Position numbers and translations under genes: made by a program. A model generated the notes under the pieces. It had not been told where the DNA came from, did no database searches, and saw only the letters and a program-made list of their open reading frames with translations. A stretch of 63,770 bases of DNA, the filler included, from Hausera hauseri (Eukaryota), in NCBI GenBank assembly GCA_046269625.1. It is 12 parts of 12 records of this genome, joined end to end, with 100 filler letters (N's around TTAATTAATTAA, not from the genome) between each part and the next. Parts side by side here need not be neighbours in the genome. Positions count along the whole stretch, not along the records: positions 1 to 6,888 come from JBJURY010054995.1; 11 more parts are not named here. The stretch is one strand, 5' to 3'. Of the stretch, positions 1 through 43,695 are shown one piece after another. Each line of letters opens with the position of its first letter. Within the stretch, counting starts at the first letter, position 1.

Positions 1-490
1 GAAGCATCTTTGTAGCCGCAAAAGAAAGTGATGTCAGGACTTCCAAACTTGAAACACAATACGTACGATTCCAAAGATACTTGAAAAACCAAGATGATTA
101 CTACAAAGCTGGAATAACCGAATTGTATCACAAAATGATAACGAGCGATTGTAAATTGGATATAATGATTATTAGAACTAAACTAACATTAATATACGCC
201 AAACCTGAGTTAGCATCACCAATAATTTCGATGAGAGAAAACATTTTTGGTCGAGTCACTGGTGAAGTTTATCACTTATGTATCCAAGAACTTCCCGTAT
301 ATACTAGAATACTCCAAGTTTGGCAATGCTACTTATTAGAGTTCTGATGGCAAACTTAACTCAACAGACAATCCAGACAATTTTAAAAGAATACAAAACA
401 ACTTTAGAAGAAATAAAGAAAAATCCAGAATATAAACGGTATGTAAACATATATACAAAAGTGAATTATCTTAGTATTAAGTTATGAAAC
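1..490 (+). pseudogene. Central fragment of chuvirus-like viral envelope glycoprotein (degraded)
   Basis: ORF 81-347 reads ..YHKMITSDCKLDIMIIRTKLTLIYAKPELASPIISMRENIFGRVTGEVYHLCIQELPV. The C..L....L.L...P...A, G+.GEV and C..ELPV pattern is typical of chuvirus-type glycoproteins. Ends at CATG 491. Confidence 0.6.
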
Positions 491-1632
491 CATGATTGTT
501 GATCACCTTAGCTATTGTCCGTGGCACTGATTTTATAAAATTTTCACACTTTTCCCTTGCGATTTCTTGGTCCATACCATTTTAAGTGCATCGATGAGTT
601 TATGATCAGTTCGAGGATGATGTTTGGCGACCTCAGCTTTCATTATCTTCCACAAATTTTCGATGGGGGAGAGGTCTGGAGAGTTTCTTGGCCATGGAAT
701 GGTGCAAATATTGTAGGTCTGGAACTGTTTTCACCATTTTTGAATAATAGCAAGGAGCTAAGTCTTGCTGGGAAATGTTCGTTTCGTAAATTTCCATTGC
801 CCTCTCCAAAGGTTCATTTAAAATTTCAATGTACTTCTCGGAGTTTATTGCTTGTACCTTTTTAATGAAAACTAAAAAACCTCTCCCATGGACCGACATG
901 GATCCCCAGACAATTATCCCTCCTGTATATTTCACTGCTGACCTAGTGTAACGATAATTATATCGGCAATTTGCATGGCGTCTTACAAAATTATTATAAT
1001 TACACTTGTTGATCAACTTAACCATCGACTCATCACTACATAGCACATGTTTCCACTGATTTAATGTCCAGGTTTTGTGCTCGTGGCATCAGCAGAGTCG
1101 TTTCTGACGAGCAGTTGGTGTTAACAACAATTTGTATGCTGGTCTCCTTGCTGGCAGGCTTAGTATCTTTGACACCAATATCTTATCATTCTCCTTTTCA
1201 ATGATGTTCCAACGTTATCTAATTCATCACACAACTTAACTGAACTGATTGATGGGTTAGATTTCACCAATACACTGAGTATACTTTTCAATCTAGAAGT
1301 TAATAAGCTTTTCCGTCCGACCTTCTTTTCAACTTGGATAGTCCTAGTTTCTTTAAAACGCATTACAAGTCGTCCTTTTTGGAACTCCAGTCTAATTCGC
1401 TGTCTCTCTTACCTTCAGTCCAAGTTTAAACAAAGTTTGAAGTTGCCCTTCATCTTTCTCTGATATCTCCTTACCCCGAGGCATAGTGCTGTTTTATAAT
1501 AAAATAAGAATAAACTTCAAACGTCAAAACTATAAAAACGTACGATAAACACGCAGCAAATCACAAAAACTAATTAATATTCATTCCTAGAATTTAAAAT
1601 AATTGCCATGTTACAACAAAATTTTGCCACTA
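491..1632 (-). mobile_element. Tc1/mariner DNA transposon, degraded transposase, 3'-truncated at CATG
   Basis: Start MPRGKE (~1484), HTH region (1160-1363), SDES..., GGIIVWG, QQDLAPCY and frameshifted WPRNSPDLSPIENLW motifs. Confidence 0.9.
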
Positions 1633-2489
1633 TATACATGCAGGAAAACATTTTCAAACAATATAATTTATCTTCCGGTTCAGAAACGAAACTCAGAAAT
1701 GTAAATATCAATTACCATTAATTTTTACAAAGCAATGTCAGCTGTTTCATTCCAAACAAGCAATTAACATAAAGCTGAAACTAATCTGTTTTAATGATTC
1801 CATAAGAGAAAATAATGCACCGTCAAAATATGAATAAAACACAACCTTCAGTAGCAGATGATATCTGAATGTCGCATACATTTAATGAATTCTCCGTCTC
1901 CATGACGAAAGATCAGAAATGAAATTTGTTGCTGTTATATAAACTGTCGCGGCATCATGATGGTTTTTTACAAGAAAATTTGCTAAATAACATTTTAAAT
2001 AATTACTAGTGATGTTTTAATGGACGCTGCAATGTCTCAATTTCACAGTTTTCTTTTTGTGGTCTACTTAAATCTGCTAATTAATGATCGAATTAATTTA
2101 GTGATTTGAATTTTACTTTTTTCAATTAGCCTAGTGAATGTTTGAACGGCTCGATGATTGAATTTGAAACATAGTAACATTTAAACACCGTACATTTTGA
2201 ATATTTACTAGAAAACGGAATATGTAATGCAGAATGTTATTCATGATTCTTTAGTGCATTTAACAGTCCATGGATGGTGCTTGTTGCATAATTATGTTTA
2301 TTTTATGTTGATTCATTATTGTTCTCCGTGCGGCTAATTGCATAATTGATGTTTGTTTTGTGTTGATTAATTTTTTTCTTTGTGGGTGATTGTGAAAGTG
2401 CTGAATATATTTTAACTAATGATTGTGTGTGAATGATTTTTTTTTCGGGTACAATTATTGGGTCACAGAACTGCAATTTAAGCATTCAT

Positions 2490-3433
2490 GTCAATGGCAT
2501 ATAAAAGCGACTTCTTAGCTTATACTTTTTTCTAAATAAAATGTACAGCTAAGCGTTATATTATCAAGTCAAAACCTATTATTTTTATTACTGAGTTGTA
2601 TTCCTCTGGTTACGTTAAATTTTACCTCTTTTACGAAGGCCAAATTACATTTGACTACCGGTGTAGTCCAAATGATAATGGAATAAATAGTTCTACAATA
2701 CTCGGTACCGTATTTACAATCTGTTTTAATCATTAATTGTTTTGATTGCATATTAAATGAAATATCCTTCTCCATAATAGTTAATGTATATAACGCCTGT
2801 ACAACAACTCTTGCAACACCATCCACTGTTTCCATAACAATCTCCGTTAGCCGTAATTGAGCCTTCCTCATTGATAGTGTGATAATTTATAGCGTTTACG
2901 GCCGCTGCTATTTCAACTTTGCTATTTATTTATAATTTTCCTTTTTTCGCCGCATCTCGGCATTCATCCATTGTTAGTTCATGTGGTTCGTTTGGTGTAG
3001 CCATTAAGATATTTGTTGAATGTCGATGTATTTTTCCACAATGCCATTTCTTTATTTGCTTAGTGAGCTTACATTCAAGCGCTTTCACTCGTATGAATCT
3101 ATTTTCTTGGTATATCCTATAATTTTAGTGCCTTCAAATATAAGTTTATCAGGCTCCGCATCTGGACATTTTTCTAGGTCTACTAAGAGAGTATGAGGTT
3201 CCAACAGCCGGATAATCACAATCATAGGCTCGAAACGCATGAGCTCCCCTACATAAAATTACAAGAAGTATAAATAGCCATGTTAAATTATTACTTCCTG
3301 GTCTAGGTAATGTATCACTAAATAACCTTTGTGCTCTAGTAAATAGTTCGCCAAGACTATTCGTTCTCTTTCCCCGTTCTGATATTTTACTTTCAGCTTT
3401 TTGAGGTTTATCAAAATTCAACAAATTGTTCAA
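2490..3433 (-). pseudogene. N-terminal half of chuvirus-like envelope glycoprotein preceded by an internal signal peptide (frameshifted)
   Basis: LTWLFILLVILCRGAHA|FRAYDCDYPAVGTSYSL..KC, then ECKLTKQIKKWHCG, LTMDECR..., CKYGTEYCRT..IIWT...C. The Cys pattern and 'AYDC' start match chuvirus-like G; homologous to 39653-39844. Confidence 0.7.
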
Positions 3434-4211
3434 TCCTCACTAATTACTTTGGGAAAGACTTTCACGTAAATGATTAATTAATGGGGAGAACAAATAACTT
3501 TAACTTGATTAGCCGCTGTGAGTGGTAGTGCAGAGAAATGTGGTGAAGACCTACCTAACTATTAGTAGGTAATATGTATGGGGCAAACTCTAGTTTAATA
3601 CTTTATTTACTACGGTTTACTTATGCTTTACTTAAATTTATACGGGTGGTCGTCAGGTAGCGTTAGACCTGGTCGACCAAATACCAAATTAGTTATCGGT
3701 TACTTAGTTATTTTCTTTACTTAGTAAGAAGACTTCAACACTAAAAGAAAATAATATAATTTTAAATAGACATGATATATAATTAGCAACCAAAACATAA
3801 AGTCAAACCGTAAACTTACAAGAACACATGGACATAAAGTATCTTAAGAACGTTTTACGGATAGAAAATGTCTGGTTACACTGCTAAAACGTACCGTTTA
3901 TATAGTACATACGAAATCATGCAAATGTCCATATTAGGACAAAATAATTTGAATTTAAATTACATAAATCACACAAATATCCAATTTAGGACAAGTACAA
4001 TTAAACCGTTCTTCTTACATATCAGTCTGTGTTTAAAATCACAATATAATATTTATAGCTTGTTAATATGTCACCACATATTTATAGACTTTTCTGTTTA
4101 TCATAATTGTCAAAAGTCAACAAAGGGTCAAAAGTCATCAAAGGGTTCGGGGGTTAAAGAAAATTGTCCCGAATTTTTATATCTGGAGAAAGTAAGAGAG
4201 TCACGAAATTG

Positions 4212-4469
4212 TCATTGGTCTAACGATAGTGGAACATGTATAAATTTATCCGAGGTTCTGCTTTTGTATATGATTGCCTGTGGTTCGTAAACTTCGTTAT
4301 CAATAGTCACTGTCTCGTCTGTCTGAAACTTTCTCTTTTTACCACCAGAGGTTGGTGTTATTCGCACCGGATCGGAGCCCGAGATCTGAGTGATTACTTC
4401 ATCAGTCCATTTAAGTTGCTTATAGATAGCCTGGTAGCATTGTACCAAAGCTGTGCTTTGGAGTGGCAT
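4212..4469 (-). CDS. Hypothetical protein, probable accessory ORF of the large retroelement
   Basis: 85-aa ORF co-oriented with the flanking element ORFs; contains KKRK; no recognisable domain. Confidence 0.3.
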   Translation of the reverse strand: MPLQSTALVQCYQAIYKQLKWTDEVITQISGSDPVRITPTSGGKKRKFQTDETVTIDNEVYEPQAIIYKSRTSDKFIHVPLSLDQ

Positions 4470-4600
4470 TCCACAAGTTTAGTGAGTTTGTTCTTTACCA
4501 GGTTATTAAAATAAAACGCGTGATAAAGAATGAACAAAATAAGAGACAAATAAAAGTCCGAACATTTATTTTGTGGAACAGTTATTTCGTCCGCCGAGGC

Positions 4601-5356
4601 CTACGAATCGTCGGTTGATGAGAGTGCCGGGTTGTTCCTGGCGACACGACATGGACGGGTAGGCGCGTCGTCCGAACTGTAGTCCGTCGGTGTTGATTCA
4701 AGTAGTATCGGATCCAACCGGATTCGACGGCGCGGTGCTGGAACCTCGTTTGGGCTGGAGCTCAGAGCCTTGGCCTGCGGTCTGTCAATTACTCGGTGAC
4801 CGGGAATCAACTGGCTCTCCGATGGAACCAGCGATTCATAGAGGCGATCAGTTGCCGCCATCAGTCTCAAGAAAACCGGCAAGAAAACCAACGAGTCGAA
4901 AAGACGCCGATTTTCCCCGTCCTCATAAAACCTCTGGAGCATTCCGCGGGGTAAAGAATACGGGTCGTTCCGCCCCAACTTGGTGAGGTGCCGTACAAAG
5001 CGGCTTCGTTGCAGCAACTCATGTGTCGTCAAGAAATCCGAATAGGACCAACATGGGGTTCTTTTCCTGGTGTTGCGACGTCGCCTTTCCCTGGAGACTG
5101 TATCCCGCCGGGTCAGACACGGCTGGTTAGTTTGGACAGTGGAGTTGGCAGTCCTGACGTTGTTGTTCTCCGTTCCGGCGTCTGTGGTTCTGTGTGCCTT
5201 TGGAATTCGGTATCCTGGCAGGACGCAGTTCTTTATGATGTTGAACGTGGCACCTGGTTGAACGGAAACGTCGGTTGGCCGGGTTCCAGTTTCGTCTCGG
5301 ACTATAGGTTCTCCTGGTTTGGTAGTAGCTTTGGTGATCTTTGTTCCCACTGGCAT
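4601..5356 (-). CDS. Hypothetical 251-aa basic protein, probable accessory ORF
   Basis: Intact ATG-started ORF, GC-richer than flanks, Arg-rich stretch (RERRRRNTRKR), AATAAA ~30 nt after the stop. Confidence 0.5.
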   Translation of the reverse strand: MPVGTKITKATTKPGEPIVRDETGTRPTDVSVQPGATFNIIKNCVLPGYRIPKAHRTTDAGTENNNVRTANSTVQTNQPCLTRRDTVSRERRRRNTRKRTPCWSYSDFLTTHELLQRSRFVRHLTKLGRNDPYSLPRGMLQRFYEDGENRRLFDSLVFLPVFLRLMAATDRLYESLVPSESQLIPGHRVIDRPQAKALSSSPNEVPAPRRRIRLDPILLESTPTDYSSDDAPTRPCRVARNNPALSSTDDS

Positions 5357-5702
5357 GTTGAATTATTTTTCTCTTTTTGATTTCGAAAATTCTTTTTTGG
5401 ATGTTTCTTCTTCTCCGTTTTGAGTCCAATGTTCTGGACCTGCTTCGCCCTTTCGCTTTTGAATGAAACTGCTCATTGTGATTTTTATTTGAATAGTAAT
5501 GTTCAATCCTTAATCTGTGGATTTAAACAAAAGGGATTAAATCCACAGATCTTGATTGTTTTTTGTAAAAAAAATTTGTTTGATGAATCCGTGAATTTTG
5601 AGAAATTTGTGAATTTTAAATTGTTATAAAATTTCACGGGGGAAAAAAAATTTTTAAGATTTATTTTCTGATTTTATTTTAATTTGAGAGATTTAAATTT
5701 TG

Positions 5703-6813
5703 TTATAATATTTTGTAAGGTAGAACCTTACAACAAGTATCGTAGAATTTCTTTGCCAACTCCTTGTAAATATTTGTGGTCAATTGATATTTACGGATAG
5801 CCTCTTCGTGATAAAGGATATCGCGAACTCCGATTATCCGTCTGACTGGGCATTTGCAATGGTTAATCACCATTTCGAGAATATCAGCTCCGATTATGAT
5901 TTTGTCCGTTAGAACCTCCATGATTTTTCGATAAAACTCATTGGTATCCATCATTATTTATGTGTGATTCCGCTAGACCCGTTAAATGGGTATCAAAATT
6001 ATTCATCCTTTGTCGGGGAGAGATGACGCTATAGAAGACAGTTTGACCATCTAGCGTTATGACCGACCATTCGATTGGCTGCATCTGATTCCATTGGTCA
6101 TACGCTAAGTTGACGGCAGCTATGATCATATTTGCGTTTGTGACGTTTTGTATTCTTCTGTAAGGGATTGTTTTGTAGCGAAGATAATCGGGTTCCGGAA
6201 GATGGAAATATCTTCCCTCTGTGATGCTTGGTTGAAAGGTCTCATGTTTGGTGATCTCAAATGCGATCATAATTCGATTTAAAAGGGAGCGAATCTTCAA
6301 TGTATTGTCCTTTATAAATTTGGATTCAAAGGCGAGAGCATGATCCGGGTCCATATTAATTAGCTCTCCCTGTGTTGAGGTTTTGCGACTTGTCGACTTA
6401 ATATGGAATTTGTCCGCGATGTTATAGATGTTCATGGAATGAAATCTTTCCGGCAGAATTATCAGATTCTGGGGATAAAAGGAAGTTGCTTTCATTAACT
6501 GAATTAAAGCTAAGGATCGATTGATCATACTGTATCCCTTGAGATTGTTTGGGATCTGGGGCGTCTGGGGATAATTCAGACTATATGTATAGTCGTTATG
6601 GCCCACGTAATATTGACTGGCTGGGGTGGCATTGATGAGGTGAGTTTTAACGTTACTTAACCAGTGTTTTGATTTGGTAATTGACTGAATCTGATGAGCG
6701 GTCGAAATTGATACTGTCAAAAGAAATGTCAATAGCAAGTCATTACAGATTTCTAAACACAACACAACGGTTATCAAACACACAATGGTAATTGTTGTAG
6801 TTATATATTTCAA
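5703..6813 (-). pseudogene. Retroelement accessory protein with DEDD/REX-type exonuclease-like domain (frameshift near 5945)
   Basis: QPIEWSVITLDGQTVFYSVISPRQRMNNFDTHLTGLAESHI / MDTNEFYRKIMEVLTDKIIIGADI..IIGVRDI matches the REX-like fold pattern; homologous to 13990-14341 and 61605-62100. Confidence 0.6.
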
Positions 6814-6888
6814 TTTATTTCTATAGGTAACCTGATGACATGTGGTTATCTCTATTGAAAGGGTTGCATAAATAGCAATCCCTAGACT

Positions 6889-6988
6889 NNNNNNNNNNNN
6901 NNNNNNNNNNNNNNNNNNNNNNNNNNNNNNNNTTAATTAATTAANNNNNNNNNNNNNNNNNNNNNNNNNNNNNNNNNNNNNNNNNNNN
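6889..6988. other. Artificial spacer (44N-TTAATTAATTAA-44N); identical spacers at 11093-11192, 16661-16760, 24847-24946, 29860-29959, 35424-35523, 39845-39944, 44699-44798, 49764-49863, 55079-55178, 59118-59217
   Basis: Identical 100-nt structure with a six-frame stop linker, present 11 times. Confidence 0.98.
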
Positions 6989-9237
6989 ACAGACCTGTTC
7001 GCCAACGAATGAGACCATTATTGCCGACGAAATGACGAGCGGCGGAAATGGAATTTAATGAACTTGAAAAACCGGCATAATCAGAAGGTCCAAATCCCCA
7101 TGGGTGTTACCGTTGCACATTGTCAACAAAAAAGAGGGAACAATTTGCCCGTGCGGCGATTACAGAATGTTGAACACGGAAATTGTCCCGGACGCGTACC
7201 CTTTACCACTAGTATTAGATATTTTTCAAAGATTATCAGGATCGAGATTTTTCTCAACAATAGACCTCAAAAAAGCTTATCATCAAATCCCAGTCGCCAG
7301 TAATGATATTCCCAAAACAGCAATGATTACACTCCTTCGGACTGTTTGAATATCTTTTCATGCCCTTTGACCTCAGAAACGCAGCACAAACGTTTCAGCG
7401 TCAGATTGATGTCGTTTTGTCTCGTCTTCAATTTGCATACCCATATATTGACGATATACCTATCGCGTCTCCTAACAAAAGTGACCACGAACAGCATTTA
7501 CAACTTGTCCTAAAACGTCTTAATGCCTACCATCTTCAAGTTAATTGGGAAAAATGTACAGTCTTCACATCCTCAGTGAGATTCCTAGGTCATTTAATTT
7601 CAGAAAAAGGTCATTCACCTCTTCCAGATCGCTTAACGCAAATTAGAAATGTTTTATTACCTACAACAACGACGGAACTCCGAAGATTTCTAGGAGCACT
7701 TCATTTTGTACACAGATACATCCCGAATTGTTCAGCATTAACCGCTAATCTGTCGATTTTAAGTTCGGGAAAGAAACAAGCAAAACTAAAATGGACTGAG
7801 GCAGTAAGAGCAGAATTTCAAGAGCTCAAAGAAAAATTACAGGCATAGAACTACTGGCTTTTCAGTTCCAAGCGCAAAATTATTGCTTATTACTGATACA
7901 TCAATAGTCGCAGCGGGCACCGTACTTCACCAAGAAGTTAATGGTCGAAACGAACCTTTAGAATTCTTCTCCAAAAAGTTTTCTGAAGTCGAACGTAGGT
8001 ACTCTACGTTTGATCGAGAATTATTAGCAGTAGTTATGGCGGTTAAACATTTTAAGCATATTTTGCAGGCTCGAACATTCACTTTGCAGACTGATCATAA
8101 ATCTCTCCTGTATATGATTAACATGAAGCAACCTTCACTCAGACAAGAACGCAAAATTTCTTATTTGTCCACTTTTCAATTCGATATAGTACAGATTCCG
8201 GGAATACAAAACATCTTCGCAGATTTCTTATCGCGTCCCCTAGCTTCACTGACTTTTTTTTCAATAATTGCGGCAGACGAACTTCGAGAAAAGCAGCCCT
8301 CAAAGGAAGATTTAAGCCATTTCAAGTCCGTCAATTTACTGGATGGCATACATTTCGATACCTCAATTCACGGTAGGAAAAGATCGATACCTCATAACTC
8401 GTTCCAAAAAAAGTCATTCGATTACATGCACCGACTGCATCATCCGGGAGCAAAAAACACCTAAAATCTCCTACACAATCAGGCTATATGGTTTTTTATG
8501 CGAAAGGATGTTCAGAATTGCGTTGATCAATGCGTACCGTGCCAAAAATTTAAAGTAAACAAAAATATTAAACCACCAAATTTTCATTTTCCTTCTACCT
8601 CGCGATTAGAAACCGTACACTTGGATTTAGTTGGCCCTTTACCACCAGCCCAAGGACATCAGTATTTACTTACTATGATGAATCGATCCACTCGATGGCC
8701 AGAAGCAGTTTCTATAAAACGTACAGACGCCGAAACAGTAGCCAACGCTTTTGTAAATACTTGGTTATCACGCTATGGCTCGCCTAAACATATCGTTACC
8801 GATCAAGGAGCCTAGCTTGAGTTAGCTTTCTTCAGATCTTTAGTAAACATGTTAGGAATCACACACGTTCATCCGTCACCTTACCACCCTCAATCAAACC
8901 GCTTAATCGAACGTTTTCACAGAACGCTGAAGGTGTCGTTAAAAATCTTCGTCGAAACCAATCCAAACTGGCTGTCAATTCTCCCATTAATTCTCTTAGG
9001 TTGGAAAAATACTCCATCAACATCAAATGACTGTTCCCCAGCACAAGCTTTTTGGAACATCTATCAGGGTACTTTTTGACGTTGCGGAAAGTGGAGGAAC
9101 ACCTACAGACTAGAATATTAACGCAGCAAGATAACATTTTATTGACCTGAATAATGACAAATTTTGCAGAGTGCTAAACCAGGAAAAGACATTTCTAACA
9201 AAGAAACTGTATGAAGCAAAGTTCGTTTGGGTGCATG
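6989..9237 (+). mobile_element. Ty3/Gypsy (CsRn1-like) pol remnant: RT, RNase H, integrase
   Basis: CGDYRMLN, DLKKAYHQIP, MPFDLRNAAQTFQR, YIDD, TDTS..G.VL.Q, YSTFDRELLA, TDHK, H...HPG/C..C, HLDLVGPLP, TDQG, IERFHRTLK; many stops and frameshifts; ends at CATG 9234. Confidence 0.95.
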
Positions 9238-10641
9238 TTAAATCCATTTAAATCGGGAGAAGATTAATTCGCAAATAGAAAAAAATAGCAACTAACGGAA
9301 TATAATAATTATCTTTTATTAAATCCATAAAAAATTCAATTTTTTTCAATATCTCTATAACAAAAAATGAATTGCAGGTACAAATTTCTGTCGTTCACTT
9401 ACAATATCGACAAGTATATATCAACAAAGAATGAGTTGTCAAGAATGGCAAAAGCATTTGTTACACGCTCCACCAAACATTATGGTTCACAAATAAATAC
9501 TCATCAGTTTTATAAAATCCGAAGATGTATGAAACGATTTAGAGTAAAGATAAATTGACGTTGTTGTCGTCTGACTGTAATTTAAATCTTTTTCTGTCAT
9601 ATGTTAAAAAATGAAATAATACAATGTTAATGTGTGTACAAATTATAACGAGAAAACATTGAAAGAATTTGATAAAAGTTGTCACAATTAAATATCCAAT
9701 TGCGTTATCTGTACTTGTAAATGGTGAAATTGAAAGAATTGATAAACGGCATCAACTGGCATCATGTAAATTCAATTCTAAAATACATCTCTTTGGGAAA
9801 TTTCATTTGTAAACTTGGTAATACGGTGTGTATGACATTCGAACTACATCAATTTCGGCTTTCATCTTTATTCTTTTGTTGAATCGATCTAAGTTACACA
9901 ATTCTTAATCGGCTTTGTTCCATTTATTAATCAGAAACATTGCCATGGAACATTGGGAATTTTGAAACAGATTGTTGTATTATTTTTCTTGACAAGTCAG
10001 CTCTTCTGGCCCGAGTCCGCGGCATCACAGTCAGCACCTCTGGTTGGGACGCAATCGTGCCCGCGGTAACACGCTATACCCCCGAAATTGCACATATTTT
10101 CTTCCCCATTTCTCTACCCTTACAAAATAAACATGTCTTTTCCACTATCTGTCTTTTCTTTAAAAACGTACATATACCCACACAACGCACATGCACCAAT
10201 TCTCAATTAAATGACCCTCAATCAATGAATCTCCAGTTTTGTCGAAATGCCGATAATAAATCATTGCAGCACAAAGCAAGGATCTCCCCGGTAAGGAAAA
10301 CAAGCTATTACAACTCTGATACTTTGGACACGCCCATCTTTTACACACCACACTACAAACCGGACTTCTCTGACAAATTCCTTCCACTATCATGGCTATT
10401 TGAAGACGGACATACCCAAACTTATTACATCTATAAATTAACAACAGTTGCCAAATTTTCGTACATACTACAGCTGCAAACATCTTTAACTAACTTCCGC
10501 CTCAGCTTTAAAGGACGCTTTCTTCAACAATCAGACACAATAACAAGTTTCATTCATTCATTCTCTACATCTATACTCACCCTACACTCCCGTCTGTTAG
10601 GCGGATCTAATCCAAAAACATCTAAGGAGCAACAAGATTTT

Positions 10642-11192: not shown

Positions 11193-12621
11193 GTCAGTAT
11201 TAAAATCTTCCACTGTGGTAAAAAACGGAGCAACTTTGATGCCAGGTTCTCAAGTCATCGTACTCACAGATTCCAAAGGTAATGTTTCAGTAATACCAGT
11301 TTCTGATCCTGTAAGTAAACACCCGGATGGGTCGTTTCATCGTCAAGATAAAAATGATAAAGCTCAAGGAGAGACAATGTCTGACGCGACATTTGAGTTT
11401 GAAAACAGAATAACCTCGAGTTGGGAAGGTCAGTTCGAGCAGGATCCACATCTTGGTAAACTGCACAGTAAACCCATGCCATCCTTACACAACAAGCAAC
11501 CAAATAATGCTAGTAACGATGAGTTGATGACAGAAAGCTCACATGAACGCCACACATCAATTCCTAGTAAAGACTTCACGGGCACCAGTATTAAGGAAAA
11601 TAAAGCGAGAATCCGGCACACCGAAATGGGAGAACGGAACTTTCCAGAATCGACTCTGGTTTCGCCTCAAGAATCAGAAACTGATGTTCAAACAATGGAC
11701 CAACAAACAAGTCAGCATCCCGTACCTTTCACTGGCACAGACTCAGTCAAAGAGCATAAATACACTAATAATCCACTATTTATGTATATTTTGTTGGGGC
11801 TTCAAAATAACACGATTCACCGCAACAACGATACGACGTCGGTTACCATGGATACTGGACGCTATCATGTTAATCCAGAAAAGTGGGACGCTAGTCATGA
11901 AGACACTAAAGAGCTATTTTGGCTTAGTCCTCATACTGTGCGACGCACGACCCCAAACATTCAGAAGACACAACAAGAAACACAAATCAGCCTAACAACG
12001 AAGACATTAAAGGAAAATGAGAATACTCGCAAGCGCCCATTGTGGTATTACAAAAGTCAATACCTTGGAATTCATTTACCGGTTGATGATAGCGAATCAA
12101 AACAACAAAACTGGGGAAGCAAGGATTTGGATTACTTTAAAAAAACAACAGATACCAGTGAAGGCACTCAAGATGTTTATGGGGGGAAAAGTGAAGATAA
12201 CTATATTAATAATTACGACAACCAACAATCCAATCTCCGAGAAGTTACAGAAGAGGATAAACATAAAACTCAAGATTATGAACAGAGTCAAAATTTACAA
12301 GGCATAAAAGCTTGGTCAAATAATGACAGTCATTTAAAACAAGCACAGTCAGATCAGACAACAGAAGATGATGAAAGGTCTCGGAGGCGAGAAGAGAGAA
12401 TCACAAACTATAGCCCCCATTTGCTTCGAAGCACAGCAGAAATAATGCCTGGACTGCCTCAAGGATATACAGATGTTCAAACACAGAAGGCTACTACCAC
12501 ATTTCCTGACGATTTGATTCAATTCTTGTGGTATATTTTGTTTGAATATATTGTTGTTGTAAAATCTTATATAGCTTTTTCGTCGCTCTTTAAGAGGGAC
12601 TTGAACCACATTAAGGTTTAA
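11193..12621 (+). CDS. Large exon/ORF of a hydrophilic, disordered (T/S/E/Q/D/K-rich) host protein
   Basis: 468-aa open frame running from the piece edge; no domain recognised; 3' end probably runs into an intron. Confidence 0.55.
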
Positions 12622-13989
12622 ATTCATTTAACGTCTCTAGATAGGACTAGAATTTGTAATTTGAAGCATTCACTGCACGCAGTACCCGCAAGCTAAAATC
12701 AAGTGCAAACTTCTAACGAGAACGTTAGAACTTATCTGCTTAAATTGAACTTGTTAAATTGATCTTATTGTTATAGTTGGGTGTTGGATAGGGCCCACCT
12801 TCAACTACTAACACTGGTATAAATAACCATATAATTGTTTTTATTATATTCTATGATACTTTTCTTGGGGTCATCCAATACAATTACTAACGTCCACTCT
12901 ACAATTGTCTGTTTGTCCAAATGTGGTATTCCTGTCATTTTGATTTGTTTCTTTAACTGTAAACAAACTTGAGTGTCTACTGAGCTATTTAGTCGTTTGA
13001 TTCCACTTTTGGATTGAAATATGGGGACTAGGTATTTGCCGATTTGCGTGTATTCTCGGGCATAGCCATCATTGCTTATGATTCTCCTAGGGACAGTTGA
13101 GACATAAAATATGGCTTCTTTAATATTGCCTTTGCAATAACATTCAGCCATGACAAGTATTTTTGTATATTCCTTAACTTGGCCAAATTCTATTACTACT
13201 ATGGGGACTAGTTCTTCCAACTTCTTTTTGAGAACATTCACTTAGTTCTCGGGAGTTTATAACGACAGATTTTCATTCACTTTTTGTGGGGTTCTTCGGC
13301 TTTTTGCAGATTCGGTTTAACCTAGAGGCTTATTGCTTCCTCTTGAACATTTAGTGCAAGACTGTTGCTAGATGGGTTGGTTTGATTGTTATTGGTTTTT
13401 TTCTTCCTGATTATATATTTAAAAGGAAAGTTTCGTCTTCGTAGGTTTGGCTTCCTCTGTTCCTTTCTGGTGCGAAACTTTATGTACGGTTTCAGACTGA
13501 TCACAATGCTTAGAGATTTGCGGTTTTGCGAAGGGATTTCGTCGTTCCACTTGATTTTAACAAGTCGATGGAATTTCTCGGACATTTCTGCATGATTTTA
13601 TCTGTCTCTGTTTGGACAACTCGACTGGATTAGTTTGTACGGTGATTTGAAAACTGTTGTGTCATTGTGGGTAAATTTGTCTATGTGCGGGGTACTCGCT
13701 GAATTCTTTTCGGAATTTCTGCATCAAAATTTTTGGGTTGCTGTCGGACATCACATTTTGCATGGGGTCTCTGGGCTTCCGTTCGTGTTCCCATAGTAGA
13801 GAAAAGTAAATATCTCTTACGAGTCCCGTTATCTGGCTTGCTGACATTAACCTGTGGAAATGGAAATATTCGCCATCCATGGCTTCTAACATCATCTTGA
13901 AATGGGATTCCCGTGACATTGGGGAAGCAAACACCCTCTCTTTTTCATTAGGATGCTTTCTGTTAGGCTCGCGACTGTCGAACTGCGGT

Positions 13990-14341
13990 TCAAGTGGAAG
14001 ATTCAGGCTATATATTCTTGTCGGATTCCTAGCCTTTCTAGCATCTTATGCACTCGAAATCCTGTTGCAATGTATCTATACAAACAATGGCTTACGTCCT
14101 CTTGTACTTCTAGGAAATCTTTACCCTTTTAGAATTGCAACTTTGTAATTTCTGTAACATCAGAAAAGGTATCCTTCACTTTAGTTCTGGGCCCTATTAT
14201 CTTGTTTATTAGCTCCTCTCCGTTTACACTTCTCATGGAGACTTCTATTGGTGAATACCACCCATCTTCTTTCTCTCCGTAGTTTACTGCTCTAACCCTG
14301 GTATTCCTGCCGTCTAAGACTAGTCTAAACACTCTGTCCAT
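13990..14341 (-). pseudogene. DEDD/REX-type exonuclease-like domain (second copy)
   Basis: SPIEVSMRSVNGEELINKIIGPRTKVKDTFSDVTEITKLQF*KGKDFLEVQEDVSHCLYRYIATGFRVHKMLERLGIRQEYIA* aligns with the 61605 ORF (GNDIFEVSKELIQWLLGTIVVGIDTHRMLQLFDIHTNYLAG). Confidence 0.65.
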
Positions 14342-16190
14342 TCTGCTCTATTTCATCTCCCGAGGGTTTTTGTAGATATAATATTGGTGGTAAGGGTTTC
14401 ATTATCTGTATATGTAAAGTCAATTCAAACATAATTTAGGTTGGAATTTCAGCAATTCTAAACTCTAAAGCATAATCCATGAGGCTGGAGCAGCATAGCA
14501 CATAAGTACTAAATTTCCATTGTTGACCCATTTAAATAATCTAGGGCTGTCCTACAATTCTGTAATGGATTTCACCATCAGCAGCACGTATGTACATTTG
14601 CTGATGTGTCGGTTCGTATAGAATTATGTCTCTCAAAAGGTATTATCGTGCATCCCTTGAGTTTCTCATTGCGTATAAACTAACTAATCGGCTTTCTTCT
14701 AAGCCCCATTTTAATCCATAGGGTATTCTACTTTCTTGGTCAATTTCTACATGGGTTTTATTTGTCAGATTTTCTCCAATTCGACAATATAGACTTTTTG
14801 ATGGGAGATTTAAGACTGTCACGTGCTGTTGTAAGAAATCATCTATCTCGTTTCTAGGACTGTGTGCTGAGATTTTCGCTTTTTCGGCATACATATACTT
14901 CTAAAGTAAAAATAAGGGTCAATCATAAAACAGGTCATCGTTTCGAAACAAAACATTTTCTCTGTCTGATGATAGGATAACCCGATCTCTAGTTATCAGA
15001 TTATGCTCTCATAAAGTTCGACTTGGTAACCTTTCAGCCGTTTATTTGCTCGCTGATTTTTGTAGCGCTTATTACAATTTTTGGAAACTAGAAAAATCTT
15101 CGCAGTTATAATGACAAAGTTATTATCGGTAAGTTATTCGGCTGGATAGAAATGTTTGTGGTAATTCAATTTTCTTTATATTGCATTGCTCGAATTTCGT
15201 TGTTAAGAGTTCGTACTGTGAAAGTTTTATGTTTTCTATCTTCTGCAGTAATTTGGATTATGTAGCTCTCTTGTGGTCATAGTAATTTGCATTCCGTTTC
15301 CTGACTATTCCTCCTTAAAATTATAATTTGGTTAGTATGCAAAGTACGGCACTCAGTTTTAATTTTGTAGTCCAATGTCTCCTCAACGTAAAATAAAATT
15401 TTATTACTACGTACCAAAAATGTAACAGGTTTATTTTCTAGTTCTCTTTGGGGCATTAAAATATGGCGCTTAAAATAATAGATGGTTTTCTCGTAGTTAT
15501 TGGAAGAGAAATTTTCCATAATCGAGCTTCTGCATAATACTTTCTTAGATAAGTACTTGGCTTGTTTGGGTAAGTGTTATACAGATCAAATTGTAATTTG
15601 TATCCGTGACCTAATAGTATCTCACAACACGGATTTGGCTGAATCTTTGCCATATAACAATACTTCACAAGGGGGCTGAGTTGTTTACAGGTACTAATTG
15701 AGTGGAATATTCTCTGACGTCTGGTAGTCCTACTTTGATTTTCATCTGGATGCATTGGTTTTTCTCGTCTTCTGATATACTAATTATGTTTTCATCTAAT
15801 ATCTTTTTCATCGCATCTATTGACTGAACAATATCTCTGAAATCGTTTATATTTATTTGCTCTTTAGTGGGTATCACTAGTTTTAATTGTGGCCTTATTG
15901 CCGCTTGTGTGCATCCATCGTTCTTGTAGAACATTCGTATTGTGAATGTGTAAGAGTTCCCATAGTTTATAGCACAACATTCTTCTTGAAGTCCATAGGG
16001 AAAATCACAATGGGTCATTACCTTCTTGTTCGCGTTCCACAGACCTACTTGGTATTTTACTGCTACTCTGACGGGTTTTCCTGTACAGAATTTTATACAG
16101 TTCCTCATAGGATCTATACTCCGAGCCTTGAAGTGGTCTAGAATACTTATGTTATTTCTCTTTATGCTTATTAATTCCTTTTCCATCCAT

Positions 16191-16655
16191 TTATTTTGTA
16201 CTCGAATCACATCCATTATTCCTATTTGGGCTTTTACATTTCGGACATGCGAAGCGATTAAGGATAGTGCTAAGATTATCTTTACTTATAATATCGGTCT
16301 GGTTACTATTGATGAATTTTTGATTTCTTCTTTGCTTCGACTCGGATTTTTTTGTTCTTATTGGCCTCCTTTCTGTTTTAACAATTCTTTGTATTGATAC
16401 GACTTCTTTGCCATTTTTGTCAATATAAACTGTAGTCGACGTGGTTCTGATAACTTCATAAGTCCGTCTTCCAGTTCTAGTGAGCTTCAGAGATTTGTCT
16501 TTCTTGGCTACCGGGTAATGTACATAAACCCAATTTCCCTGTTCTCGATCATGTGGTTTAGCCTTCTTGTCGTATTGCTTTTTAAATTGCTCTTGATACC
16601 CTTGGGATAATTCTTTTGCTACTTCCCAACACTTTTGTTGTTTTGCCCGTAACAC
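16191..16655 (-). pseudogene. Ty3/Gypsy integrase C-terminal (GPY/F-type) region
   Basis: Q..FKKQYDKKAKPH....GNWVYVHYP......KL.....YEVI....TTV.I.......VSIQRI. Confidence 0.8.
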
Positions 16656-16760
16656 AGATCNNNNNNNNNNNNNNNNNNNNNNNNNNNNNNNNNNNNNNNN
16701 NNNNTTAATTAATTAANNNNNNNNNNNNNNNNNNNNNNNNNNNNNNNNNNNNNNNNNNNN

Positions 16761-19354
16761 ACCCTTATATCGATGATATTCTAGTCCTTTCATCTTCGGC
16801 CAAAGAACACAAGGAACACCTTCGCGCAATATTCCAACGTCTTAACCACCATAATCTCCAAATCAATTTTGACAAATGTCATTTCTTCAAAAAGCGCATT
16901 AACTTTTAGGCCACGTTATTACACCAGACGGTCATTTTCCCCAATCAGATTGAATCGAAGCTCTAAAAAACATCCAGTTGTTACGTATAACCACCGAAAT
17001 GTGTAGCTCCCTTGGTACACTACACATTGTACATAAATACGTACCATATTTCTCCGAATTGACAGCACCATTCGCACACTTAAACGGTGGCAAAAAACAT
17101 CAGCTAATCCAGTGGACACCTGAATTGGTCAACAAATTCAATAAGCTACGCGAAGGAATCAAAACCGTCGATATTCTAGCTTTCCCCAAGCCTGATGCAG
17201 AACTTATCCTTACTACAGATGCGTCAACCATTGTTATAGGCACTGTACTCCACCAGATCTACAAGAGAAAAAACCAACCACTAGAATTTTTCTCTCGCAA
17301 GCTAACAGCACCTGAAACGAGATATTTCACGTTCGATCGAGAAGTATTGGCCATCGTTCTTGCTTTAAAGCATTTCTCCCACTTACTTGATGCTCGTCAT
17401 TTCACTCTACAAACCGCTCAATAGCTCTTACTTAACATCATGGCTATGAAACACCCTTTTACACGCCAAGAACGACAAATATCATACTTATCGACATTTA
17501 ACTTCGATATTAAACATATTAACGGGGTCAGCAATTTAGTTGCTGATTTTTTATCTAGGTCGGTTAGTTCGATTAACTTTTCACCAATCTTTACGCAAGA
17601 TCAACTTCAACAGAAGCAGCAATCTCCGGACATGCTTAATTCTTTCAAATCTTGCACAATCGTTGACGGCGTGGCTTTCCGTGGCCATTCCGTAATAATT
17701 CTAGCACCATCATTGCAAAGGCAAGCATTTCACAGCGTGCATTCACTACAACATCTTGGTGCTAAAGCCACTTTTCGTTTACTTCATCGACAAGTAATAT
17801 GGCCATCAATGCGTTCTGATGTGCAGGCATGGGTTAAAGAGTGTGTGGCTTGCCAAAAATACAAAACAGCTAAGCATTTAAAGCCACCACTGTTCCAATT
17901 TCCCTGCACATCGTGTTTCGAGTCCGTGCATGTCGACATAGTTGGCTCTCTTCCTCCAGACAACGGACATCAATTCATCCTCATCATGATGGACCGTTCC
18001 TCGCGATGGCCAGAAGCCATTACTCTGCGGAGCACAAACACCGACACCATAGCTGACGTTTTCATTCGCACATGGATTAGCAGGTTTGGATATCCTCGCT
18101 TCATCATCCCGGACCAGTGTACACAGTTTGAATCCAACCTGTTGAAATCCCTTGTTAACCGATTGGGGACCCACTACATACATACTACGCCTTATCGCCC
18201 CTAATCAAACGGACTTCTAGAACGTTTCAACCGAACATTAAAAACGTTACTACGAATCCTCGCAGAGTCCAACACTAGTTGGACTAATCTTCTTCCGTTC
18301 GTCCTCCTCGGCTGGCGGAACACTCCGTCCACTTCTACAAGATTCTCACCTACTGAAGCCTTATTCGGAGCTCCTGTCCGATCATTATTCGAACTAACCG
18401 CCCTAGGCGACACTCCCACGAATGAGACGATACGGGCGGCGCAAAATCACTTCGTCAGGGTCAGCAAAGATTTGTTCTGAAGACTACTTCACAAAGACAA
18501 AACATACTTACCCGAAGATTTGTATTCGTCAAAATTCGTATCGCTAAAGAATCAAGCGCCTTGGGGTTTCCAGCCACGGTACCTGGGCCCTACAAACTGA
18601 TACAGCTACACTCACATAATGCCATTATCTCTAAAGACGGCAAAGACCTTACAGTACACATTACCAATTTAAAGTCCGCTTTCTTTGTCGACTACACCGT
18701 ACCAACCGACACTTCAACCTCTTTTCATACTTCTCCACTCCCTGTTATCTCTATATATATTGCTATATCATTTCCACCTTCCTCTTCTGTGTCTAGCCCT
18801 GCTCCACCATTTTCTACACTTTCTACTTCTATTTCTACCTCTCCCTCCGTATCGTCTTCCTCTCCCACTCTGTCACTCAACACAATTCCAATCGCTACTC
18901 CAACTTTTTTTCATTTCCTTTAACCGCCACTACACCTTTCACCACTCCTTCGTCTTCTAACACTCTTTTCAATGCTTTTAACCATCCGTCTTCAACATTC
19001 CCTCTTCCTTCTTCGTCTTCTTCTTCTCTCTATTCCGACTCATCTTCACACGACACAACACCTACACCAAAATCTACCAATTTTTCCCCCAACATAAATC
19101 TCTGCAATCAGACACATTGCATAAAGACACAACACGCAGAGTCACATTCAGCAAGTATAGCAGGGTAAAATCAGCCGAAGGTATTCAACGTCTTATTCAC
19201 ACTAAGCTCAACTGACACAAGCACTTTTCGTTTTGAGATTTTTTCTCTCTATCCACTTACCCTTCATAGTTTTAACTTTGCCACGAGGGATGATGTGGCG
19301 CACACAGCGGCCGGCGCTCTCTGGCAGGCCCCGATCTCCCTCCAAAATTGCATG
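16761..19354 (+). mobile_element. Ty3/Gypsy (CsRn1-like) 3' half: RT end, RNase H, integrase, pyrimidine-rich tail, PPT and start of 3' LTR
   Basis: YIDD at ~16766, TDAS, FDREVLA, HVDIVGSLP, LERFNRTLK, GPY; purine tract GAGGGATGA (19285-19293) then TGTGGCGCACACAGCGGCCGG (19294), cut at CATG 19351. Confidence 0.93.
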
Positions 19355-27995: not shown

Positions 27996-28097
27996 TTTTA
28001 ATAAAATAAATAGTTAAAACATTTTGTCCAATTTGATTTTGAATTTTGATTCTCTGTTTTCCATTTTGAAAATTTTTGTAAAATATATTAGCTTTAA

Positions 28098-35523: not shown

Positions 35524-36000
35524 TGGCACTAGATAGATATGCCAAAGAGGGTGACAGATATGATCGAAATAATGATAGTGACAATCGAGATAGAAACCGA
35601 AACAATAAGAGATTTTATGATAATAATAAAGAACGAAGTTATGAGAATAAAACTCAAAATGTCCCTAATCGCAGATATGACAATAGGAACTTTGGTGAAA
35701 ATCGGAACACATACAATCCTTACAACCAAATAGGTTATAATCCGAATAAAAACCAGAATAATGACCGAAGTAATAAAAGCCGATATGTAGATAATCGTAA
35801 TTTTGAAAACAGAAATAACGGATTCGATAAACAAGCTCAAGGCAAAACAATGGGTAGACCCAAATCACCAGTAAATAAAGACAGATAACAAAGGATCGGT
35901 CGAGACGGAAATTTAATTTGTTACTCATTTGGTAAGGAAGGACATATAGCTAGATCATGCCCTAATCCACGGAGTGTATCATTTGCAAAGACTAGTAAAG
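35524..36000 (+). pseudogene. Retroelement Gag C-terminus: N/R/D/Y-rich tract plus CCHC zinc knuckle
   Basis: DRYDRNNDSDNRDRNRNNKRFY... then CYSFGKEGHIARSCP (35919-35963; second Cys mutated to Phe). Confidence 0.75.
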
Positions 36001-38818
36001 CTAGCACAATGAAAGATAATTTGGAAGGAATCTACGGGAAACAAGGTGACATAAGCATGATTATTGAGATACAAGACTTACGAAGGTATGTAAGAAATAT
36101 GGGCAAATCTAATAATCCACAAGTAATAAAGGCTAGGAAGGAATACGAAGAGAAGGTGCATTAAATGGAAGTTTATCATGGATTAAGAGAACCAACAACG
36201 GAATACGAAAAGGCTATAGCGCCTAAGAATACTAAAATGGCCAGAAAGAAAAACCTAAATCCAATGGCAAAGTCAACTACGCCTCCAAGTATAGATTTAG
36301 ATGCAGATACCGAGGTCGCGCCTAGGGATAAGTACAAAGTAACATTGGATGATGAGGTAACAACTCAAGATAAGGAGAAAGCAACAGATGAGGTTGAAAG
36401 TGAATTTATCGTCCAACTGATACTTAATATAACGAAAAAGAGGTAGAAGTCCCTCTCAGGAGAAGGTCGAGAACCCGTTCACGGTCACCTATCAAAAAGA
36501 ATATAGAAAAAGAGGAAGATTTCACGATCACTTTAAGAGATGAAAGAGTTAGACACTCCTGTTAAAATACAAGACGCTCCGGAAATAACGAACATTCCGA
36601 ATATGGAGGAAATAAATGAAATATGTTCATTACCATCTACTGAAGAGGAGTCAAGAGGAAAAGTCGATAAAATTTCCGAAGGTCAGAAAATCGTGGAAAA
36701 ATGCGAATGATCTAACAGAAATAAGAGACACTGAACTATCCCGGAAAACTAACTGAGCGCTTACAAAAACTGCAGCAAATGAACAAGCAGTTGTACATCT
36801 CAGGAAAAGAACAACAATCCATAGAAGTTATATAGGAAGTTGAAAGCCGACACCCAGAAAGAAGAGGACATACAGTATGAATTGCACGAAACGCCGCAAG
36901 AATTAATAAAAAGTTGGCAAAATAAATTAGAACTGTGGATAACGAATGATATCGATTTTACGAAAATATGGTGAATAAAATCGAACCGTTTCTCGATTAA
37001 ATTAATAAAGCGCAAGGATTGTTAAACACACTAACGGGTAACCCAAGACTAAAACGCGTAAGGCGTAATTTAGAAGAATTGATGCGTGAGATAGAAGAAG
37101 CGATAATTTCTTATCTTCATAATAAGCCAGTTTACGAACTAACGGATGCCGACCTAAAAATACTGAGTATAGACCAAACCAATATTTCCTTCCTATTAGA
37201 AATGTGCAGCTTAATAAAGGATAAACCCCAGAAATGTCCAGATTTAAAAATACATATCGGAAGAGAAAATGAAATACAAGTCAAAATTAACAACTTAAGG
37301 ATCGACGTAGTCCACTCTGAAAACATAGAAGTAAAGAGAATAATACGCGCTTGTCTTCTTGAGTTAGATGAATATAAGAAAGAATTCAACTATATGGAAC
37401 AAATCATAAAATTTGTACGAGGACCCGATCATAAACTAAAGGAAGCTTTTGAGGCTTTGGACGAAATTATATACGCTAAACCAGAAACATCTAGACAATA
37501 CAAAAGTGGATAGACTTGTTACCTTGTATAGCCAAAGTGATTAACGAACGACTAAGGGAGTTCGCTGTAGTTGAACCAATAATGAAACATCAATTGGAGG
37601 AGATGCTACTAAATATCGGCATGATGGAAGATGAAGCGAAGTTGAGAATCAAATTCGAATCATTTCGAGAACTTGAATTTATGAATCAGGATCAAGATCT
37701 GACAACACTAACCGAAATATATACTATGATAGAACAGAAGGACTTTTGCAAAAAAAGAAATAAACTAAGTAATCTCCAGCGGAGCTTAGTAAACATCCGT
37801 TGGGAAGGAATACAGAATCTAATACAGAAACTGTTAAAGGAAATCTCTGTACAGGAGATAGAAACCTTAGAAATATGTAATAACCACCGGATTGCTCTCG
37901 CGCAGACACTGCAATATATACAGAATCCAGTTGAATGGTCATCAGGTTTTGACCTACATTTTCACTCCGAATTAACGGAAATTAAAAATGATCTGCAACT
38001 GACAAGCGATGAAGCCAAGTTCGTAAGTAGGCTGATGGACGCAATAGATCCAGACGCCGAAGAGTTAAACCAAACGTACAGATTAATCTCACTAATAACA
38101 GAAATGGCGGAAATTGACGAAGTAGTGGCAAAAAGACTAACAAATTGGATACGTCTGATAAAAGAAAACCGGTTACGCTCTGAGAAAAAACAACGCGAAC
38201 TAAACGAATTACTAAAAAAAACAGAAATTTATAAGAATAAATATTCTCTTACGGAATCAGAATTAAATGATAAAATAGAATTTGTACAGAAATGGCAAAG
38301 AGATAGAATAGCCGAAGTGACTAATTATCAAGAAAAAGTTTTAATACAACCAGAGGAAATGTGTCGACTAATAAAACTGATATAACAAGCTTGCGGAAAC
38401 GGTGATGGATTTAGGGTATCTATCATGAAAACTTTACAGCCGCAATTCAGCAAATTAAGCGAAAGAATACTAGTCAAACATGCAGTACTAATAAACTACG
38501 ATTTGCCTGATGCAGATAACGAAGCCGAATGGGATGAATATTTCCATGGTCTAACCGAGCAAAATCAAGAAACTCCAATATATATTTATAAATCACCTAC
38601 TGGTACACAAAAGACGAAATTCGACGTCCAAATGCTGCTTGACCCCGCGTTAGCGGAGAAGAAATTGAGTATTGAAAAGAAATATAAGTGAAGAAAAGTT
38701 AAGGAAATTGATTCCAATCTTGACTAAGTTATCCAATGAAAACACTGCATACAGCGCCGTACCTAAGCTTCTAATAATGGAATACGCTAAACTATTGAAA
38801 AATAAACCAGAAGCGAAA

Positions 38819-39035
38819 ATTAAGGTGAAAGTATTATCTTAAATAATGGACGACGAAGAATTTCAATGTACCACCTATACTACAGTTGGGAATATAAAAC
38901 AACGGATAATGGATAAGGATAATAGAAAAAAAGTTAATTATTGACTGTATTTTAGAGGCAGAATATTAGATGAGCCAGAATTTCTAATAGATGTAGGAAT
39001 TATACTCCTCGAGGAAAATCGAGTAATAGCAATTA
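38819..39035 (+). pseudogene. Ubiquitin-like domain (two in-frame stops)
   Basis: IKVKVLS*..EEFQCTTYTTVGNIKQRIMDKDN...NY*LYFRGRILDEPEFLIDVGI aligns to ubiquitin IFVKTL...TIENVKAKIQDKEG...LIFAGKQLEDGRTLSDYNI. Confidence 0.7.
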
Positions 39036-39652
39036 TCATGAGTGAGCAGACTAAAGACAAAGCCATAAGAAAGGCACATACAGAACACTGTGTTGGGAAA
39101 ATTATGGGAATTTAGGATGCTGCAATGTACTTTAAATACTTACAGACGGATAAAGACAAACTGCAATATGATAAAAATTTCGTTCCACTAAGTGAAACCT
39201 TACCACCGATGAAACCAAAACGACCAGTCGGAAGACCAAGAAAAATAAAAGAAGTAAACTATAATGCAGATTTAATTAGGCAACTGAGACAACTATCAGT
39301 ACCTACTCCGAGCTCAGATAACGAAGAATTGATAAAACTAATGAGAGATTTAATTAGGATAGTAAACTATACCGGACTCTAAGGCGGCATACTGTCCGAA
39401 AAAGAAAGATTAATATATAATATAGCACGACCATGAAAACTTCGACATTTAAATTATCTAAAAGTACTTTCCCTGACGAAACAGTGACTGACATAATGAT
39501 GGTAGACAATACGACGGAATAATTAAGGAAAGTCTTGATATATTTGGCGGTAAGAACTAACCCTCACCGAGAAAACGAATTTGAAAAGACAATTGGATTG
39601 GCTAGGAAAGCTGCAGGAAGGATACCCAAAGAAATAAAGTGGGCTACATTGT

Positions 39653-39844
39653 TTGAAAAAAGAAAATGCAAAGGAGACTAATACGTTAGAAGATATGATA
39701 CGAAATATCTCTTTAAATAGAGGCAATGAATCCAAATGGTTAGTCAATCTGCTAACAATAATGATGCTAGTTAAACAGCTAGGAGCAGTCACTATATACG
39801 ACTGTGATAAATTCAAGATGGGTCAAAGATATTCTCTAATGGAT
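39653..39844 (+). CDS. Internal signal peptide and N-terminus of chuvirus-like glycoprotein (truncated by spacer)
   Basis: TNTLEDMI...KWLVNLLTIMMLVKQLGA|VTIYDCDKFKMGQRYSL versus TNSLGELF...WLFILLVILCRGAHA|FRAYDCDYPAVGTSYSL at 3149-3433. Confidence 0.7.
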
Positions 39845-43646: not shown

Positions 43647-43695
43647 GATTGATCATGTAGAGGTGGTATAATGACAGATTATTATTGTTGTCATG

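Follow-up and report, generated by a model that had tools for sequence, protein, structure and literature searches.

A broken class III envelope gene in the Hausera hauseri assembly, probably from an abundant Burro-like Ty3/gypsy retroelement family

The minus strand of positions 3436-2590 codes a leader, a signal-like segment and the beginning of a Monjiviricetes-type fusion glycoprotein. These positions lie in the window, by which we mean the whole stretch of 63,770 nucleotides (filler included) analysed here from Hausera hauseri (assembly GCA_046269625.1). The window consists of 12 separate contigs of 3.9-8.1 kb each, with N spacers between them; positions 1-6888 are JBJURY010054995.1, which carries the following features.

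3..344, plus strand: central Env ectodomain fragment (PF24664, E 6.1e-7, 28.2 bits; tblastn to 11 relatives)
536..1470, minus strand: Tc1/mariner-like transposase remnant between the two env pieces (weak HTH_Tnp_Tc3_2 match, E 0.082; motif by eye)
2590..3235, minus strand: Env ectodomain of class III (chuvirus G / herpes gB-like), N-terminal third (PF24664; 48-51% to P0004)
3236..3283, minus strand: signal-like hydrophobic segment, TWLFILLVILCRGAHA (best 11-residue Kyte-Doolittle mean 3.0)
3284..3436, minus strand: hydrophilic leader of 51 aa in frame with the signal, with no in-frame ATG and two stops immediately upstream
3437..4214, minus strand: AT-rich spacer of about 780 bases without a long ORF, between accessory ORF and env
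4215..4478, minus strand: 3' end of the accessory ORF (P0003 360-442 matches 4478-4230; stop at P0003's end)
4479..5732, minus strand: secondary insertion of 1,254 bp that splits the accessory ORF (6-bp flanking duplication; own ORF of ~295 aa with one stop)
5733..6888, minus strand: 5' part of the accessory ORF (hydrophobic N-terminus, conserved IPN domain, ISG20/REXO-like exonuclease domain; one frameshift)

A sequence-only reading of this DNA had placed a chuvirus-like fusion glycoprotein behind a signal peptide, and the profile search bears this out: PF24664 (Monjiviricetes fusion glycoprotein) matches the N-terminal env part with E 1.4e-16 and 60.1 bits, against a cut-off of 27. The signal-like segment ends in A-H-A directly before FRAYDC, a predicted signal-peptidase site as judged by eye, and the same layout of leader, signal and FRAYDC-type start is found in relatives. 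TNSLGELF occupies 3364-3341 within the leader. The motif series proposed for the ectodomain stands in part, since FRAYDC (3235-3218) and YSL (3193-3185) are in place on the minus strand but the KC lies in another frame. Similarly, the Cys-patterned ectodomain proposed for 2490..3433 is borne out as homology over 3235-2590 but is not one ORF, and env homology stops near 2590. Aligned with its closest relative, P0004, the ectodomain falls into four in-frame pieces, with three frameshifts between them and one stop; the piece at 2886-2425 is 51% alike to P0004 and has no Pfam match alone. Several of the breaks coincide with differences in related contigs, so the breaks look copy-specific. Judged from its frames, the env copy at 2590-3436 is a fossil that cannot make protein.

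A central env fragment had been suggested at 1-490, and PF24664 indeed matches 3-344, with GEVYHLCIQELPV at 261-299; a YRIYQE...EC stretch is present in the window Env. The orientation of this fragment is opposite to that of the main env piece, and it is either a second copy or an inverted part of the same copy. No gag lies upstream of env on contig 1-6888, and Bcl-2-like and ubiquitin-like domains are absent before env there. Within the window, no pol is joined to either env piece; fragments of pol do occur, on other contigs, from which no linkage to these pieces can be drawn. Neither LTRs nor a primer site or target duplication belonging to the element were seen in the window, and the contigs of 4-7 kb end inside the element.

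The accessory ORF is 57% alike to P0003. Its exonuclease-like domain has profile matches to ISG20L2 (E 4.3e-7) and SDN1 (E 5.5e-5), and the first acidic motif is replaced, which predicts an inactive enzyme. The fold model of P0003 has a mean pLDDT of 32.8, so the exonuclease assignment rests on sequence profiles. The family comprises three window copies, P0003 and a homologue in the metagenome contig L001, where it is ORF2 (607 aa, L001:9958-11781; 22%, E 3e-6). The further window copies are at 14314-13991 (minus strand, E 3e-9) and 62501-61608 (minus strand); on contig 11193-16660 the former is preceded, as in L001, by the tail of an integrase and by an ORF with a signal peptide (16285-15668). 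The insertion at 4479-5732 is outside the retroelement proper, and contigs of sequencing run X1 skip it (joints 4473 to 5736). This insertion is abundant, has a perfect 8-bp hairpin at one end and a second hairpin before the ATG, and its ~295-aa ORF has no Pfam match.

A second env start had been reported at 39653-39844, on a different contig (35524-39844) from the start at 2490-3433. All features of this contig are on the plus strand.

35526..36161, plus strand: Gag C-terminal region with one degenerate zinc knuckle at 35919-35966 (zf-CCHC E 0.0049, below cut-off; tblastn to P0018)
37001..38688, plus strand: charged, helical stretch separating gag from the ubiquitin-like domain (no significant family match)
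38858..39001, plus strand: ubiquitin-like domain (Pfam ubiquitin E 0.0026, below cut-off)
39218-39244, plus strand: AT-hook-like motif after the ubiquitin-like domain (by eye)
39638..39844, plus strand: beginning of a paralogous Env (leader, signal-like segment and initial residues), truncated where the contig ends

The motifs of this start are where they were described (TNTLEDMI 39677-39700, signal-like segment 39734-39787, VTIYDC 39788-39805, YSL 39830-39838), and the two env starts are homologous overall, as none of 5000 shuffles reaches their score. The proposed likeness of the two leaders, TNSLGELF and TNTLEDMI, does not survive the same comparison: the score of the leaders alone is reached by 281 of 5000 shuffles and is not beyond chance. 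For a profile built from the pre-signal helices of three relatives, the corresponding counts are 383/1000 and 43/1000 shuffles. The Bcl-2-like stretch expected on this contig is not detectable above chance (99/1000 and 495/1000 shuffles). The contig preserves the gag-to-env order in broken frames, as in P0018 and L001, and ends before pol. We infer that the helical region at 37001-38688 holds the position of the Smc-like region of the planarian element Burro.

The window joins 12 unrelated contigs, so the three env pieces are not shown to be one element. Most of these contigs resemble an invertebrate genome, with a GC content of about 33-42% and slight or absent CpG depletion. Contig 55179-59118 looks vertebrate: it is CpG-poor, with a kinase fragment and a GC-rich repeat of 33-bp units, and bears 156-bp direct repeats (96%) at its two ends. 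In the last contig, two T-cell-receptor V-like segments with recombination signals were recognised by eye at 62665-63631, within a CpG-depleted part (62500-63770, observed/expected 0.14) that is joined directly to invertebrate-like DNA (0.85); this contig is probably chimeric. The CpG-poor kinase contig and the T-cell-receptor V-like segments indicate that the source of the window is mixed.

Other remains are scattered over the window. Decayed conventional gypsy gag/pol fragments occur at 7068-9088, 16766-18393, 33470-34467 and 45830-47526 and have no link to env. By eye, two decayed DNA polymerase B-like regions of Polinton/adintovirus type can be recognised on the plus strand (25089-26072 and 30124-31963), as can fragments resembling a divergent TATA-binding-protein fold on the minus strand (43694-44581), which could come from a DNA virus or a Polinton-like element. 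A kringle domain (19394-19972, E 2.6e-12) is accompanied by weak matches to a frameshifted glycosyltransferase-like fragment (27536-28014) and an Argonaute/PIWI-like fragment (48114-48557). An ATCGAT-rich dispersed repeat is common to two contigs (41874-42807 and 59218-59330), and a search with a frame from it found no homologue. The tRNA and Rfam searches gave no match.

Both env-bearing contigs clearly belong to large repeat families. From X1, the sole run used and possibly the window's own source, 4,795 contigs map to contig 1-6888 and 8,705 to contig 35524-39844, and these are mostly 80-95% alike. Their summed depth, which is not equivalent to copy number, ranges from the hundreds up to tens of thousands, whereas at 1841-2300 it is about 5.

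What an unbroken version of this env looks like can be seen in its relatives. An HMMER search with env against 1.84 billion representative proteins gave 41 matches; the best is P0004 (49%, a fragment), and among those that follow it, many are long chains in which the glycoprotein sits in the middle. The signal-like segment is internal in 14 of the 41, N-terminal in 15, and in the remaining 12 that part is missing. One match with an N-terminal signal, P0011, corresponds to the env of the locus L002, in which env follows a Bcl-2-like frame across a frameshift. The 25 matches scanned with Pfam are PF24664 proteins or short pieces, except P0037, a likely chance SRCR match, and P0033, which has a cellular domain in front. 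A Pfam-called retroviral protease follows Env in 6 of these 25, half of which (3) also have reverse transcriptase, RNase H and integrase, and a zinc knuckle precedes the glycoprotein in 2. P0045 (4,844 aa, a cluster mate of P0006) combines Env with several proteases, ankyrin repeats and a pol that also includes reverse transcriptase, RNase H and integrase. The pol order is gypsy-type (PR-RT-RH-IN) in L001, P0013, P0019, P0025 and P0045, and Env is in frame between gag and pol in L001, P0014 and P0019. The polyproteins P0045, P0014 and P0013 also contain C2H2 fingers, ankyrin repeats and several aspartic-protease-like domains in tandem, for which P0045 has as many as 7 matched stretches.

The search for intact copies succeeded among relatives. 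A metagenome scan with alignment A2 yielded two loci from 11 pattern matches, among them L001, a JGI metagenome contig that carries a Burro-like element in intact form at 403-9957. Its single 3,184-aa ORF runs from Gag with knuckles through ubiquitin-like and Bcl-2-like domains, signal and Env to protease, reverse transcriptase, RNase H and integrase; the Pfam families called along it are, in order, zf-CCHC, UBX-like, PF24664, protease, RVT_1, RNase H and integrase. L001 thus shows that intact frames exist among the relatives. After its integrase come a second predicted membrane protein part, also present in P0013, P0019, P0025 and P0045, and then ORF2. Directly before ORF1 of L001 is a TGG-starting stretch resembling a primer site, which we take to be a candidate tRNA-Trp-like one. 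The Bcl-2-like matches before the signal in relatives range from E 3.9e-5 (L002) to 0.2, and in P0005 (E 9.6e-4) the best PDB match is Bcl-xL. Querying longer proteins by word index with the env frame gave no match among 1,138 candidates, and no relative came from scanning IMG/VR with any of three queries (the env frame, alignment A2, P0003).

Structure prediction on the intact relative P0005 agrees with the profile assignment. The AlphaFold model (mean pLDDT 72.7) matches herpesvirus gB in the PDB with E 1e-13 at low TM-scores near 0.3, and chuvirus-like glycoproteins in BFVD with E 2.5e-39; a PDB sequence search with the Env alignment gave no match. For the Env tree, 32 proteins were picked by hand from the window, the 41 matches and L001; matches without the N-terminal part were left out and P0028 was dropped for want of the start motif, leaving 31 rows in a short alignment of 141 columns. 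The window Env and P0004 group at 100/100. Together they fall inside a 22-row group of polyprotein-borne or short Envs with support of 94/92, just below the tool's star threshold, and the stand-alone chuvirus-type rows fall apart from this group.

Based on these data, we propose, with a probability of roughly 0.88, that what lies here is a broken env copy belonging to an abundant Burro-like Ty3/gypsy LTR family, in whose intact relatives a gB-like glycoprotein is carried inside the Gag-Env-Pol polyprotein and is likely released by signal peptidase for a predicted role in membrane fusion. The earlier expectation that G is released from a longer precursor fits the internal signal in 14 of the matches, and the precursor in L001 is the whole Gag-Env-Pol polyprotein. 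The mechanism that we envisage draws on what is established for signal-anchor topology and for structural polyproteins of viruses. Translation would begin with the cytosolic part, Gag and the accessory domains, after which the internal hydrophobic segment would initiate translocation and bring the chain into the ER. The cut by signal peptidase would fall just ahead of the conserved YDC, and the C-terminal transmembrane helix of Env would stop transfer and return the chain to the cytosol. On that side protease, reverse transcriptase, RNase H and integrase would be synthesised, to be excised by the protease of the element itself. The signal would stay on the Gag-side product, where it could tether Gag to the membrane at which particles bud, and the route would give equal amounts of Gag, Env and Pol. 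The Bcl-2-like, ubiquitin-like and pseudo-exonuclease domains may act on host cell death, ubiquitin and RNA defences, respectively. The internal signal predicts a processing route that can be tested.

In the subfamily of contig 1-6888, env may instead have stood as an ORF of its own, on the 3' side of both pol and the pseudo-exonuclease ORF and with a short leader only, an arrangement that we regard as a tentative and on balance doubtful option. Whereas L001 and contig 11193-16660 have the homologous exonuclease-like ORF 3' of integrase, here it lies 5' of env, and a shift of env to a 3' place in this subfamily may account for this. The exonuclease-like ORF stops at the end of P0003, ~780 bases without a long ORF then precede env, and in P0004, the closest relative, the called protein begins with a Met at the signal. 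No purine tract of at least 11 occurs in the spacer (3437-4214). X1 contigs cover this spacer at depth 108-306 and bridge it stepwise, yet no single record spans it; its summed depth is as high as that of env in the env-adjacent part but about 10-20x lower in the distal part. The join may therefore reflect a minority rearrangement, or one copy may end where part of another begins. The polyproteins P0025 and P0027 also speak against a separate env, as exonuclease-like stretches lie upstream of Env inside them (by eye; P0027 E 0.037, P0025 no match), and so does the leader, since tblastn alignments of P0006 and P0045 reach into it and in these proteins pol follows Env. Alternatively, contig 1-6888 may record an amplified junction between parts of elements. 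Bolder and, in our estimation, unlikely is the proposal of a Burro-lineage endogenous virus amplified in an invertebrate outside planarians, with a separate env 3' behind a conserved membrane-anchored ISG20-like pseudo-exonuclease that would serve as a decoy against RNA defence. If a separate 3' env in a non-planarian Burro lineage were true, Burro-like elements would switch between GAG-ENV-POL and GAG-POL-ENV layouts.

Three further explanations were considered. One is a non-retroviral endogenous element, a genomic copy of a glycoprotein gene from a chu-like virus or another negative-strand RNA virus; in its favour, PF24664 is a family of Monjiviricetes, and chuvirus-like glycoproteins give the best structural matches. 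A chuvirus-like G match alone is not evidence of a chuvirus, however, and this origin is very improbable: the closest relatives are gypsy polyproteins, stand-alone G proteins match more weakly and branch apart, the leader is in frame, related contigs number in the thousands and are diverged, and the IMG/VR scans gave no relative. Cellular proteins are not the best matches among the 25 scanned, and neither contig has an N or L family match or a GDN motif. Together, L001 and the tree largely refute an endogenous RNA virus. The sequence-only reading of a retroelement env rather than a stand-alone viral gene holds. An Env of a BEL/Pao element of the Anakin kind is slightly less probable again; Anakin elements do carry chuvirus-like glycoproteins within LTRs (PMC7642597, as far as its available text describes them), but the pol of the relatives matches RVT_1, RT_RNaseH, Integrase_H2C2 and rve, with no BEL/Pao-specific family among those listed, and Env precedes pol in them. 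Solo glycoproteins have been proposed as domesticated in mosquitoes in the same source, and a domesticated host fusogen derived from such an env is scarcely credible here: nothing in this DNA was found in its favour, and the frame is truncated and broken four times, several of the breaks looking copy-specific. The broken frame refutes domestication for the window copy.

The Burro-like Ty3/gypsy reading finds its closest counterpart in planarians. Burro and GYPSM1 are giant Ty3/gypsy elements, for which PMC6431247 cites Grohme 2018 and Jurka 2007; in the available account there, Burro encodes Gag, Smc-like, MATH, ubiquitin/SUMO-like and BCL2-like domains, and an env in frame between gag and pol that matches mononegavirus fusion glycoproteins (Arkhipova and Yushenova 2019). 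The relatives here share with Burro, as described in that account, the Gag CCHC knuckles, ubiquitin/SUMO-like and BCL2-like domains, a mononegavirus-like fusion glycoprotein in frame between gag and pol, and ankyrin repeats (in P0045); a coiled-coil region, thousands of copies, and decayed copies in some species are further common points. In Schmidtea, BURRO1 RNA is reported to increase upon smedwi-2 RNAi (PMC8532177). In contrast, MATH, BIR and dUTPase were not seen here, section 7 of PMC6431247 does not mention an ISG20-like pseudo-exonuclease ORF, and the env of contig 1-6888 follows that ORF instead of gag. In the literature searched, which does not include Grohme 2018 (where an exonuclease-like ORF in Burro may be listed) or Sacco 2022, no Burro-like element is described as having an ISG20-like pseudo-exonuclease ORF.

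Elements of GAG-ENV-POL layout with a gB-type Env are reported from Nematoda, Bryozoa and Platyhelminthes (Chary and Hayashi, PMC13524379). According to the available part of that paper, errantivirus group Platyhelminthes C1a shares with the relatives here a gB-like class III ectodomain after a signal/transmembrane segment and an ENV before POL. By eye, six Schmidtea rows resemble the window Env in their YQE...EC start and later cysteine pattern; YQE occurs at 11 places in the gB sequence file, and at the position of the window's motif only in these six rows. The nematode rows examined look quite different from the window Env. The paper catalogues intact elements, and none of the terms Bcl-2, ubiquitin, polyprotein and exonuclease occurs in its main text as available. 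Nematode non-canonical ERVs (Sacco et al. 2022, via PMC13524379) likewise have ENV before POL in a metavirus, as in the relatives. Troyka was considered as a match and rejected, being without an envelope in the available text of PMC12440569.

Anakin carries the same glycoprotein superfamily in an LTR element (PMC7642597, in its available part), but on a BEL/Pao backbone and in mosquitoes, whereas the relatives here have gypsy-type pol. For the accessory ORF, the nearest likeness is to the bdelloid LTR elements Juno and Vesta, in which a DEDD-family exonuclease ORF lies downstream of pol (PMC5408684). In the available description, their ORF3 is RNase D-like DEDDy with intact residues and without a transmembrane segment, whereas the ORF here is ISG20/REXO-like, with its first motif replaced and a hydrophobic N-terminus. 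An Env within Gag-Env-Pol is an already published layout, and the pseudo-exonuclease ORF upstream of env is mildly new; its family offers a lead on how such elements handle host RNA defences. Placing Env inside Gag-Env-Pol is an unusual design, and this locus and its relatives show that the lineage using it is diverse and abundant in unannotated assemblies. Among these known systems, the window env works like, and most likely belongs to, the Burro-like / GAG-ENV-POL lineage.
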